Assembly: GCA_951406725.2 (NCBI GenBank)
Contig: OX597815.1
Location: 3,844,001-3,908,000 of the forward strand
Reading direction: 5' to 3'
Source: Octopus vulgaris
Taxonomy: Eukaryota
DNA: 64,000 nucleotides
In this document: positions 305 through 64,000 of the stretch, piece by piece
Layout of the letters: each line of letters opens with the position of its first letter
How positions within the stretch are numbered: position 1 is the first letter of the stretch
Position numbers and translations under genes: made by a program
The notes under the pieces: model-generated
The model's database searches: none
The model's input: only the letters and a program-made list of their open reading frames with translations
What the model was told of the DNA's origin: nothing

Positions 305-725
305 TATATGAATAAATGAAAGAATTGAGTCGAACGAAGATGTTAACAAAATTCCTTTATTCTCGACATATGTTTCGAAGACAACATGTTTTCATTCCAA
401 AGGAATAAAGGGTGCATTATGCAATCTTCTCATCAGAAGATTGCATAATGAGAAGATTGCATAATGCACCCTTTATTCCTTTGGAATCAAAACATGTTCG
501 AAACAATCGAAACATATGTCGAGAGTATAGGAATTTTGTTAACATCTTCGTTCGACTCCATTCTTTCATTTATTCATATACAACACACATTTTCTACACA
601 TGAACCCGGAGTTTCTACTCTTGGACAGGTCGCTTCAACCGTGTTTCTGACGTGAATTTCCTACCCAGGTTTCGGTTAAACGAATTTTCCATGCTGACGA
701 TAAACATAGGATAATTCATTCACCT
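305..725. mobile_element. Rearranged copy of the (TA)n-embedded long-stem-II hammerhead element, with a fold-back palindrome (arms about 305-432 and 447-580)
   Basis: Homologous to 34280-34550, 43475-43822 and 63043-63395. The minus strand has CTGATGA...GAAACATATGTC, but the 5' strand of stem I is lost at the fold-back junction. (TA)n on both sides. Confidence 0.75.
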
Positions 726-2174
726 ATTTATATATATATATATATATATATATATATATATATATATATATATATATACACCTTATATCTGCAGACATGC
801 ATACATATATACTTACATGCACACATACACATACACTCATATTTATAACACACACACATATACACACACACACAAACAGACTCACACACACACACATATA
901 CAAATCGGAAACCTTAGATGTCCTTCTATCATAAGTTTACTGTGGTCGCTGTCTATAAAGTCAGGGACGCCCAATGTTCATTTTGCAGCCCACATCTCCG
1001 AACTTGAAAATACTCGGGCGTGTGTGTTCGTGCGTGTGTGTATGTAGTGTGAATGGAAGCTAATGTCGGCCACGGAATCCTCTGTGGGTTCGCCTTTTGT
1101 TCGAGTCAATTAAACTGGCGATGATAAAGAGATTCTTTTTATCTTAGTAGGACAATGGAGCTGTAGTTTGAGACAAACTGTCTTGTTGACATTCGATTAC
1201 GCACTTCCTTCTGGGTTACGAGGCAGCTTTTGTTACAATGCATATTCATACTCACACACACACACACACACACACACACACACACACACACACACACACA
1301 CACACCCACATACTGACGCTCAAACATACGCACACTTGGATATATACACATTTACATGCCTACTTACAAACACACACTATCTCATGTACGTATATACATA
1401 ATTATATGTATATATATATATATATATATATATATATATATATATATATATAAAATATACACATATATATATATATATATATATATATATATATACATAT
1501 ATATATATACATACATATATATATACATATATATATATACATACATATATATATATATATATATAATTACATATATATACACGCACAAATATTTCAATAT
1601 CTATGGAATATATGTATTATACATACTCATGCATAATAAAATATACATATGTTCACATACACGCATACAGAGGCACATAGGGAGTACACACACACACACA
1701 CACACACACACTCACACACATACAAAAGTATATGTGTATGCACTTCGTTGTGTATATTTGAGTATATATGTGTGTGGATGTATATTTGAGTATGCTTCTT
1801 TCTTGTATGTGTATGTTCGTTTGTGTGTATCTGTGTGTATGTATGAATGTATGTATGTATGTATTTATGTATGTATGTATGTATGTATGCATGTGTGTGT
1901 GTGTGTGTAGGTGCGTATGTGTGTTTGTAATTCGCCCACAAACCCCAGACCCCCGTCTGTATGTATAGACAAATGTAGACAGCTCGGCAAGAGACAATAC
2001 AACGCAACGATGGCCGGGTTTCAACGAGGACGCGCCATTCTGCTGTTCGGTTGTGGATTAAATTCTTTTGTGAATTTCAATCTTCGATGGAGGACAAAAT
2101 TAATCCCTTCAATTAGTAAATTGTTTCCAGAAATATGTTATAGTGAGATGTGTGTGTGTGTGTGTGTGTGTGCG

Positions 2175-2610
2175 TGTGTGTGTATTATAAATATGAGCGT
2201 ATGTGAATGTATGCATGTCTGTAGATATAAGATATATATATGTGTATATATATATATATATATATATATATATATATATATATATATATATATATGTAGG
2301 TATGTATATATGTATGTATATATACATACATACATACATGCATGCATACATTTTTATATATGTCGAAATTATCAACATTAAAATTCCTGTATTTGTGCCT
2401 GTGTGTGTGTATGTGTGTTATAAATATGACCGTATGCATGTCTGTAGATATAAGATATATATATATATATATATATATATATATATATATATATATATGT
2501 ATGTTTGTATGTAGGTATGTATATATGTATACATACATACATACATACATGTATTGATATTTTTATATATGTCGAAATTATCAACATTAAAATTCGTGTA
2601 TTTGTGTCTT
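2175..2610. repeat. Local tandem duplication (two units of about 200-230 bp) containing microsatellites
   Basis: TTATAAATATGA..GTATGCATGTCTGTAGATATAAGA..ATGTCGAAATTATCAACATTAAAATTC occurs twice in tandem. Confidence 0.8.
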
Positions 2611-2951
2611 GTGTGTGTGTGTGTGTGTGTGTGTGTGTGTGTGTGTGTGTGTGTGTGTGTGTGTGTGTGTGTGTTTGTTTGTGTGTGTGTGAAAAACAGT
2701 TTGTCAACAAGACAATTTGTCTGAAACCCGACGCAGTATAGAAAATATTACATATGCATATATGCTAATATTCAGGTATATACACACGGTCACGAATATA
2801 CACACACACAAACACACACGCGCGCGTACGCACATACACACGCACATACACACATACACACATATTTACAGACCGTAAAGTGCAATGTACTGACCTGTTT
2901 TACAAAAGAACAAACGGTCAATCTTCCACTTGTTATTATTCAAACAAATCA

Positions 2952-3131
2952 TGGCGGCGAGATGGCAGAATTGTTAGCACGCTGGACGAAATGCTTACCG
3001 GTATTTCGCCCGTCGCTACGTTCTGAGTTCAAATTCCACTGTGTTCGACTTTGCCTTTTATCCTTTCGGGGTCGATAAATTAAGTACCAGTGAAACACTG
3101 GGGTTGATGCAATTGACTAATCCCCTCCCCT
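2952..3131 (+). mobile_element. tRNA-derived SINE (family 2, MetaSINE-like central domain)
   Basis: GGCGGCGAG.TGGCAGAA head, GAGTTCAAATTCC B box and GACTTTGCCTTTCATCCTTTCGGGGTCGATAAATTAAGTACCAG-type core, repeated many times in the window. Confidence 0.85.
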
Positions 3132-3319
3132 TTAGTTCAAAGGATTATGCTAATAAATCTTCTTTCTACAAACGCCATTCGAGACTGGACTACTATCCTA
3201 TTATGAGCCAGAATTATGAGCCAGAATTTTCAGTCAGCCAGGTGTATTTAAAATATAACGGTATCGACCTGACCGTCAGATGTTGTTATACATCGCTAGT
3301 CACAATATACATATATTTG

Positions 3320-3510
3320 TGTGTGTGTGTGTGTGTTTGTTCCCCCACCATCGCTTGACTGGGGTGTTTACGTCCCTCCAACTTACCGGTTCGACAAAAA
3401 GACCGATAGAATAAGTACTAGGCTTACATAGAATATGTCCCGGGGTCAATTTGTTCGACGAAAGTCGGTGCTCCAGCATGGCCAGAGTCAAATGACTGAA
3501 ACAAATAATA
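3320..3510 (+). mobile_element. SINE family 1, 3' half
   Basis: GACCGATAGAATAAGTACT...GGTGCTCCAGCATGGCC.CAGTCAAATGACTGAAAC-type tail, matching the other family 1 copies. Confidence 0.8.
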
Positions 3511-3771
3511 GAATTATATATATATATATATATAGAGAGAGAGAGAGAGAGAAAGAGAGAGAGGGAGGGAGAGAGAGAAATATAAAAAGATAAAAATATT
3601 AATTGGCACAAATTAAATTTAAATGCTGAAGTGAATCTAACAGTTTTTTGTGAGTTTTTTTAAATGTCTTATAAATACCTTCCAAGCTTCAATTGTTTTT
3701 GTTTCAGTACACGATCTCAGATCAAGTCACTTGTTATGCAAATACACTTCCGTAATATATGTATATATATA

Positions 3772-62195: not shown

Positions 62196-62409
62196 ATACT
62201 ACAAAATTAGAGAATGGAGAAACATACTTAAATCAATAAAACATCAACTATCAGATGATACCCAATCAATACTTTAATACACCAATACATATCAGTAAAG
62301 GCGCCTTTACTGATATGTAATGGTGTAATAAAGTAATGTTTGGGTATCATCAGATAGTTGATGTTTTATTGATTTAAGTATGTTTCTCCATTCTCTAATT
62401 TTGTAGTAT
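62196..62409. repeat. Spacer-less palindrome with 107-bp arms, centred at 62302/62303
   Basis: ...ATATCAGTAAAGGC|GCCTTTACTGATAT...; the right arm runs into (TA)n. Confidence 0.92.
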
Positions 62410-62750
62410 ATATATATATATATATATATATATGTATATACACATATATATCTATATATACTTATCTATATATGAAACAATACGTGATTAGACGTAATAT
62501 AAAATCCCGAAAGGAAGAATTCAGTTGTCACTAATAGTGATTTAGGGTGCATTGTAGCACCTACATTGCTAGAAATTAGTGTGAAAGACCCTTAGAGCCA
62601 GAGCCACAAACATGGCACAAGTCTATGTACACAGTTATATTTATGTATATATATATATATATATATATATATAATAAATATTAGGGAATAAATCCAAACT
62701 TACAGGGAAAAATCAGATTTAGAATTGAATCCAATTTTATAGTAAAATAT

Positions 62751-62983
62751 TATATTATATTAAATTAGAGACAAAACCACTATTAGGCAAATCATACAAT
62801 GAAAAACTGAAGCCAATACATAAGATTATTTAATTTATATTATTTAAATATATAAATTATATTTTTTTAATAATTTTGTTATATATTTAAATAATATAAA
62901 TTAAATAATCTTATGTATTGGCTTAAGTTTTTCATTGTATGATTTGCCTAATAGTGGTTTTGTCTCTAATTTAATATAATATA
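62751..62983. repeat. Inverted repeat (arms of about 105 bp) of the element end also seen at 3772, 58650 and 61863
   Basis: TAAATTAGAGACAAAACCACTATTAGGCAAATCATACAATG and its reverse complement. Confidence 0.9.
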
Positions 62984-63203
62984 TATATATATATATATAT
63001 ATATATATATATATATATATATATATATATATATATATATATTTGAGTAGTTGAATGAATTATCTTATTAAGGATAATTCGAATTAACCGATACCTGGGT
63101 AGCAAATTCACATCAGAAAAAACATGGTTGAAGTTACGTGCCTATGGCATAGTTTACATGCTTTCGTCTGGAAATTTGTATGTTTATTTTAAAAATATAA
63201 ATA

Positions 63204-63250
63204 GGCCTGGGCCAATACTGGCCAAAACCTTTCTAAGTTATTCTAAGTTA
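63204..63250 (+). mobile_element. LINE family A 3' tail only
   Basis: GGCCTGGGCCAATACTGGCCAAAACC.TTCTAAGTTATTCTAAGTTA, matching the tail of 53891-54777. Confidence 0.8.
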
Positions 63251-63284
63251 TGAAAGAATGGAGCTGAACGACGAATTAACAAAA

Positions 63285-63384
63285 TTCCTTTATTTTCGAC
63301 ATATGTTTCGAAGCGGTGCATATTCCTAATTGCGAAGGAATAAGGAGTACATTATGCCGCTTTCTCATCAGGAAAAGCAAGGAA
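63285..63384 (-). ncRNA. Type I hammerhead ribozyme with extended stem II
   Basis: Nearly identical to 34416-34514 in reverse complement, with CTGATGA...GAAACATATGTC intact. Confidence 0.82.
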
Positions 63385-64000
63385 CTTATGTCAACATATA
63401 CATATATGTATATATGTATATATACATATATGTATATATGTATATATGTATATATATGCAAACACATACATATATGTATATATATATATAAAATTTATAT
63501 AAATAAGGATAAGATCGTTATTTAAAATACTGATCATATCAAGTGGCTAGCATGGGATTAAAATTTCAAAGGTAATAATTATTATTAAAATTATAATTAA
63601 GGGTATCTAAAAGATACCATCATGCTATCTTTAGCATGATGGTATCTTTTAGATACCCTTTATTATAATATGCATATATATATATATATATATATATATA
63701 TATATATATACACACACACACAGATAGACAAATATACCTATATATATATATCATCATCATCATCTTTTAATGTACTTTTTCCAACCTGACATGGTTTTGA
63801 CGGTTTTGACGGGATCTGGTAAGGCCTGCAGCTGCACCAGGTTCCACTGTCTACTCTGCCATGGTTTCTATAGCCGGGCGCTCTTCCGGTTTACAGAGTG
63901 CGGCACTGGCACAAGTGGCGTTGCCACAAATCTTGCAATACGTAAAAGAAAAATGAGAGCAAAAGGAAAGGGAGACGACCGAAGGGCGGTCTTGTTTTCT

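Follow-up and report, generated by a model that had tools for sequence, protein, structure and literature searches.

Predicted hammerhead ribozymes between TA microsatellites of Octopus vulgaris very probably mark the 3' ends of several Penelope-like element families

The window analysed here is a 64-kb stretch of contig OX597815.1 (positions 3,844,001 to 3,908,000; assembly GCA_951406725.2) from the 2.8-Gb genome of Octopus vulgaris, which is assembled in 227 contigs. Its GC content is about 37%, and it contains 126 runs of at least six TA. Between these runs lie short islands that carry motifs of type I hammerhead ribozymes (HHRs). According to the original prediction, at least five hammerhead families are present, all inside (TA)n microsatellites, and the islands are termini of Penelope-like elements (PLEs) or retrozymes. 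The islands are real, and the guess at their kind was largely confirmed. The features concerned, sorted into families A to G and K, are the following.

306-690, minus strand: family A pseudo-long terminal repeat (pLTR), a fold-back between TA runs; HHR motif at 361-440 (core 436), inverted arm at 448-690
3593-3754, plus strand: core-less 3' fragment of family G, which meets family B tail-to-tail
3765-4273, minus strand: 5'-truncated 3' end of family B; HHR motif at 3915-3983 (core 3980), U.U at the base of stem II, stem III ACGATCGT
18623-18658, minus strand: family K motif, a copy with decayed stem III; core CUGUUGA with U at position 6
33293-33643, plus strand: family E retrozyme-like unit with a short inverted arm; HHR motif at 33409-33482 (core 33416)
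34280-34575, plus strand: family A pLTR with an inverted tail piece and TA on both sides; HHR motif at 34424-34506
38569-38779, minus strand: family C pLTR; HHR motif at 38671-38705, U4C, stem III ACGT
43467-43815, minus strand: family A pLTR with inverted tail; HHR motif at 43521-43601
48466-48850, both strands: family G inverted pair; G3-C8 motifs at 48611-48658 (minus) and 48718-48765 (plus), both decayed (A9G, one extra T)
49031-51466, both strands: family D, a 5'-truncated Neptune-type PLE with two inverted arms; U3-A8 HHR motifs at 49214-49253 (minus) and 51285-51324 (plus)
49393-50631, minus strand: family D frame with reverse transcriptase (RT) thumb, CX4CxxC linker and GIY-YIG endonuclease
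50696-51145, plus strand: C-terminal part of GIY-YIG in the inverted arm of family D
52340-52870, minus strand: family C pLTR; HHR motif at 52451-52485, first stem II pair broken
53049-53231, minus strand: family F pLTR whose core (U3-A8) is at 53224; this copy has lost stem III
63043-63397, minus strand: family A pLTR with a long tail ending at a TA run; HHR motif at 63293-63376

A strict descriptor of the type I hammerhead with palindromic stem III detected eight cores in the window, as against a mean of 0.02 (maximum 1) in 200 local dinucleotide shuffles. A relaxed descriptor detected ten, as against a mean of 0.15 (maximum 3) in 150 shuffles; its control version with non-pairing N3:N8 detected one core, with 0.24 in shuffles. 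Motif frequency is thus far above that of shuffled sequence, the comparison by which the original prediction was to be checked. The strict descriptor was passed by 436-, 34429+, 43597- and 63371- (family A), 38701- (C, which carries U4C and still passes), 49246- and 51292+ (D), and 33416+ (E). The family B core 3980- passes only if the U.U mismatch at the base of stem II is allowed, and the family C core 52481- fails, its first stem II pair being A.C. The latter is one of the decayed window copies, as are 48653- and 48723+ (G), 53224- (F) and 18654- (K). Family-typical copies of A, B, C, D, E, F and G satisfy the type I descriptor (three stems, CUGANGA/GAAA/UH, a 3-8 pair, stem I open). Two further matches were set aside: 31199(+), one of the ten relaxed matches, is a single match of which the loci contain no other copy and probably arose by chance, and 18597+, which overlaps the antisense of the family K copy, was treated as chance.

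The motifs sit at the places named in the original prediction, its minus-strand numbers being approximate 3' ends, and the stem III palindromes are as it described them. Its sites sort into six families (A, B, C, D, F and G), in line with the minimum of five; the motifs of E (33416+) and K (18654-) had been missed. Of the folds at about 352-436(-), 48712(+) and 53190-53228(-), taken to be variant or broken, the latter two correspond to decayed copies (48653-/48723+ and 53224-), whereas 436- passes the strict descriptor. An Rfam scan of the window gave no hammerhead among the 150 matches listed of 536, where microsatellite matches to miRNA families dominate. In the genome at large, RF00163 scored above cut-off at eight of 73 scored sites and in none of 14 control genomes; it also matched further hammerhead families (L180-L199) with canonical short or long stem II and no link to an open reading frame (ORF). 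First-look searches of the genome gave 1,482-3,214 candidates per family with 40 scored per search, figures that are not copy numbers.

Adjacency to TA was determined at the junctions of genomic copies. The 3' end meets at least four TA in 20/28 loci of family A, 21/24 of B, 16/17 of C (an earlier reading of 12/21 used a reference that itself included TA), 22/23 of D, 15/25 of E, 8/20 of F and 18/30 of G. The same adjacency was found at 581 of 33,555 control positions (1.7%), and the expected enrichment of TA at element ends is therefore present (40-96% versus 1.7%). With these same frequencies, the statement that all hammerheads lie inside (TA)n goes too far: in the window the 3' ends adjoin TA at the sites named, but a TA run is missing 5' of 38701- and 53224-, and the TA at the end of 33416+ and 18654- is degenerate. 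Family B fragments that lack the core also adjoin TA runs (58644-58993, 61849-61897, 62751-62988, 5417-5541, 35305-35375 and 56165-56246).

Copies of these families are truncated at the 5' end and occur as solo elements or, often, as inverted arms. No head-to-tail pair within 1 kb was found for families A, B, C, D, E, F and G. Among the loci that match a motif, inverted pairs were present in A (4/28), C (1/22), D (6/25), F (6/14) and G (8/30). Families D and G each end at two fixed 3' positions, and the two arms of an inverted pair use one each, a pattern like that of the tail described for PLEs (PMC8557442, PMC11167929). The family D pair in the window has one arm with a long tail and one with a short tail, and in this family each of the 3' ends falls on an internal TATATAT tract. 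Outside TA runs, 15 of 21 distinct family G loci show a target duplication of 9-14 nt, and three of the remaining six extend upstream past the tested span. A motif 3' of the predicted cleavage site served to select 30 family G arms from 24 insertions; 27 of them start upstream of this site, three downstream and none at it. Since copies keep the predicted cleavage site, uncut RNA is likely the template of copying. As to the start itself, 14 of the 30 arms begin within 9 nt of each other, 20-25 nt before the core (e.g. L175:1490-1505); this common 5' start lies just after a branch-point/acceptor-like or initiator-like motif and may be a start site or an intron end.

Coding frames connect most families to PLEs. 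The family D pair in the window flanks the frame with RT thumb, CX4CxxC linker and GIY-YIG endonuclease at 49393-50631 (minus), so that the system is not invisible to ORF-based annotation as had been thought. In the family D protein RVT_1 scored above and GIY-YIG below cut-off, and of the 744 homologues returned most are listed with RVT_1 and many with GIY-YIG. Elsewhere in the genome, family D has RT-endonuclease frames of 811-869 aa, and two of the three loci read (L260, L262) have the hammerhead repeat on either side, with about 4 kb between the repeats. An ORF1 of about 495 aa precedes the RT frame and overlaps it in another phase (L260:2228-3703, L262:4583-6067); the L131 copy of ORF1 gave no Pfam match. 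Canonical PLEs have one ORF, and the separate ORF1 sets family D apart from published PLE elements with hammerheads.

In 5/30 family A loci, the same strand carries a GIY-YIG frame about 0.6 kb upstream. For family B, one locus has an upstream Hydra-type endonuclease that contains a CxCX5C linker, separated from the family B end by about 2.3 kb of AT-rich DNA; a paralogous upstream copy for this family is L306. The frames of A and B have a DKT motif (L135, L306), no CCHH, and CxxC and CxH around E and N. The CxCX5C linker is present in family B (CTCRDKTKC) and missing from the family A copies read, which have an N/S-rich stretch instead; because of this, family A can be called Hydra-like only. 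Hydra-like A and a sister (L021, L012, L018, L027, L039) lack the linker that has been proposed to steer TA targeting, and A still ends in TA (20/28 loci). At 12422-12784(-) in the window, a weak tblastn match to the family A RT (31%, E 1e-5) appears to be an old Hydra-like remnant.

Family G has its own RT-endonuclease frame upstream and a core downstream in 17/25 loci, chosen by an upstream stretch of DNA. In family F, same-strand frame remnants 34-60% identical to those of G were found in 10/20 loci, and family K has a Neptune-type endonuclease upstream in 22/30 loci. A CX2-5CxxC linker upstream of GIY-YIG is present in the frames of D, K, M, G and F; the spacer from CX4CxxC to GIY is long in D, K, M and C and short in F and G. 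Family M (L357-L385), which lies outside the window, is a young Neptune-type PLE 59% identical to D, with frames of up to 784 aa. The assignment of islands to termini of several TA-biased PLE or retrozyme-like families thus stands for A, B, D, F, G and K, for which RT/GIY-YIG frames lie upstream on the same strand. It is weaker for family C, whose frame link comes from one locus, and family E is a permuted unit of about 540 nt, for which no ORF was found in 25 loci and four longer stretches. Two frame assignments were rejected. The L059/L133 endonuclease, considered for family C, belongs to K; the L228/L305 frame, considered for G, belongs to M, with a G core downstream in only 2/30 loci, and the L224 frame has its own pLTR. 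A cluster search with a B-type frame returned only unnamed clusters.

With N3 and N8 left free, 326 sequences (1.28 Mb) gave 242 matches, which form 12 repeated families and 15 singletons, the family G cluster including 18 double variants that had been fetched on purpose. The commonest 3-8 pair is Watson-Crick in all 12 repeated families (C-G in seven, U-A in four, G-C in one). Five of these are bystander families not seeded by a query (three C-G, two U-A), and family H has a pair change, AGTC/GACT versus GGTC/GACC. The G-C case is family G: its G3-C8 pattern of 19 nt has 5,888 exact matches in the genome, 18 matches have both positions changed, and none of these 18 double variants is the C3-G8 version. 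Contigs from four sequencing runs, which cannot show RNA ends or strand, cover family G with no variant above 5% at position 3 or 8. Its sister family F, with frames 34-60% identical, has U3-A8.

Two families depart from the core consensus at other positions. Of the exact matches to family K, 19,938 carry U at position 6 and 274 carry A. Among the first 100 of 17,642 core-free matches, U6 was present in 96 and C3, U4, G5, G8 and A9 were kept in 96-100, while all four bases occur at position 7. Family M has U3-A8 with GCAA for GAAA (C at position 13) in 29/29 ORF loci. By sequence, K (U6) and M (GCAA) depart from the invariant A6 and GAAA and are best called hammerhead-like folds. In minimum free energy (MFE) structures of monomers, stems I and II formed for C, D, E, F and G, and the dimer MFE of family D pairs its two ACCGGU stem III palindromes.

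Taken together, the islands are very probably the 3' pLTR ends of at least seven PLE families plus one retrozyme-like unit, with predicted type I hammerheads, that likely insert by target-primed reverse transcription into TA/AT-rich DNA from RNA that is likely uncut. The element endonuclease would nick AT-rich DNA, and the RT would start inside the RNA tail, probably aided by short TA/AT tracts at the fixed 3' points. A template switch could create the inverted arm, and duplication of the TA target would leave TA on both sides of the copy. The C3-G8, U3-A8 and G3-C8 hammerheads may cleave slowly, as dimers via the palindromic stem III or with the help of protein, and such slow cleavage would shorten transcripts that read through or are tandem; the hammerheads of the U6 and C13 families probably cleave poorly or not at all. 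A wider proposal, which we put forward tentatively and would not expect to hold in full, is that a single genome contains what amounts to a natural mutagenesis experiment on the core, in which every variant (C3-G8, U3-A8, G3-C8, U6 with about 20,000 copies, C13) has become fixed in a retrotransposon family that spread successfully. The hammerhead role in PLEs would then be non-catalytic if U6 and C13 are dead and the fold is yet kept, and TA-primed insertion with 9-14-nt duplication would make the elements seed TA microsatellites and not be mere tenants of them.

Several points weigh against the assignment to PLE ends and the proposed route. The evidence is assembled DNA, and hammerhead activity is a prediction. 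The ORF link of family C comes from one locus (L069), as does that of family B, and the clade labels Neptune (C, D, K, M), Nematis (F, G) and Hydra (A, B) are based on motifs compared by eye with rows of a published supplement. Loci chosen by top score favour young copies, except in family G, which was sampled by position. The agreement in 3-8 pairing includes seven of 12 families seeded by queries already holding a paired N3:N8, and within-family alignments (family A) are too uniform to show covariation. The monomer MFE structures of A and B are alternative folds; folding z-scores are unremarkable (B -0.45, C -0.93, D 0.19, window copy of G -0.44); and of the three dimers folded, those of A and G have no stem III dimer. 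In addition, RNA start sites were non-homologous to the cut DNA in the PLE studied by Frangieh et al. (PMC11167929), and therefore weigh against the TA/AT microhomology step as a general rule.

An alternative role for the motif has to be considered, in which the hammerhead fold persists mainly for a non-catalytic function, such as RNA binding by the PLE protein or packaging, with cleavage dispensable and the core free to drift. The prevalence of U6 over A6 in family K (19,938 versus 274 exact matches) together with its free position 7, the GCAA of family M in 29/29 ORF loci, the long open frames of both families and the retention of the cleavage site in copies all speak for this role, and HHR mutants left insertion of an anole PLE unaffected in vitro (PMC11167929). 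The 3-8 pairing is nevertheless kept in every family, the conservation of C3, G5, G8 and A9 in 96-100 of 100 family K matches fits selection on active-site geometry, and a natural A6C variant has retained low activity (PMC3088659). We regard this role as possible but doubtful; it departs from the reading as PLE 3' ends in the role of the motif only.

Improbable is an origin of the islands mainly from non-autonomous retrozymes, whose mobile form would be a circular RNA that the hammerhead cleaves and ligates. It would suit family E, whose unit of about 540 nt is circularly permuted in 23/23 loci (sequence downstream of one copy matches sequence upstream of others), with no ORF found, and bystander family I, in which long-stem hammerheads lie head to tail 535 nt apart (L133:4353-4888 (-), L148) in a layout like that of E. 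Even for family E, none of 17 loci has two tandem HHRs. The missing head-to-tail pairs and the inverted pairs of A-G, the lack of a common permuted unit in A, B, C, F and G, and the PLE frames upstream of families other than E argue against it. That the motifs are chance matches in repeats and their TA adjacency mere TA abundance can be dismissed as extremely unlikely: a random unmasked position does have a TA run within 300 nt downstream 32% of the time, no hammerhead is among the Rfam window matches listed and 31199+ looks like chance, but 8 versus 0.02 and 10 versus 0.15 cores in shuffles, N3:N8 pairing across 12 families, junction-level TA in 40-96% versus 1.7%, and RF00163 above cut-off at eight genome sites and in 0/14 control genomes cannot be explained in this way.

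Hammerhead-bearing PLE ends in (TA)n are a known arrangement that has already been described for Octopus, and the system is therefore not new in the sense of the original prediction. Minimal hammerheads in PLE pLTRs, with an extra base after A9, U3-A8 in Schistosoma and low dimer activity, have been described (PMC4209133). A (TA)n bias, inverted copies and a tail are also published, the role of the hammerhead in endonuclease-positive PLEs being called unclear; for Hydra-1_Obim of Octopus bimaculoides, (TA)n preference and the hammerhead are given in Files S1 and S2, respectively (Craig et al. 2021, PMC8557442). Families A and B resemble the Hydra clade in the C-terminal GIY-YIG, DKT, lack of CCHH, CxxC..E..N..CxH tail, type I HHR and (TA)n bias. 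They differ in a long extended stem II, which in B starts with U.U, and A differs also in lacking the CxCX5C linker. Four family motifs are absent from the covered part of the supplement that lists Hydra-1_Obim, and the window families are therefore other families.

C, D, F, G, K and M share with published PLE hammerheads the type I motif, palindromic stem III, solo and inverted copies and U3-A8 covariation, and C, F, G and K also the extra nucleotide after A9. Unlike these, according to the texts searched, they include natural family-wide G3-C8, U6 and C13 cores; such cores were not found in the literature searched, a weak negative since the terms depend on spelling and figures were not covered. 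Natural U3-A8, A6C with low activity and U10.1-U11.1 are on record (PMC3088659). In Poseidon PAc of Anolis, internal initiation, protein-assisted cleavage that is dispensable in vitro, and partial activity of an engineered C3G/G8C core were reported (Frangieh et al. 2024, PMC11167929). The octopus families are like PAc in two internal RT start points giving a tail, in AT-rich targets and in the RNA template, which is likely uncut in the octopus families. They are unlike it in that G3-C8 is a natural fixed state and not an engineered one, and in that start sites lie at short TA/AT tracts, whereas those of PAc are non-homologous to the target. Family E is similar to the non-LTR retrozymes of animals (PMC7229834; bioRxiv 10.64898/2026.07.22.740005) in its ORF-less loci, permuted unit and type I HHR, and differs in unit length (about 540 nt versus 150-450 nt) and in monomer-plus copies, with no tandem array seen.

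Other repeats of the window include non-LTR RT fragments bounded by TA runs at 4244-5380(+) and 53903-56238, which we take to be CR1-like; the second forms an 878-nt inverted repeat. A CCA array at 24158-25628 is unusually long, with about 490 copies at 96% purity.

For annotation, tens of thousands of islands of 200-300 nt could be filed as PLE ends. The O. vulgaris annotation counts 31 recently active Penelope-like families and 893 recently active unclassified families of short interspersed nuclear elements (SINEs) (PMC13282606 Table 1), and its covered part does not mention hammerheads or ribozymes; some of the 893 unclassified SINE families may be such PLE ends. The finding goes beyond routine through the core variants that extend over whole families and through the evidence for copying of uncut RNA. 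As some young families carry canonical cores, others the swapped G3-C8 core and others cores that look broken (U6, C13), the role of the hammerhead in PLEs becomes testable on natural sequences.

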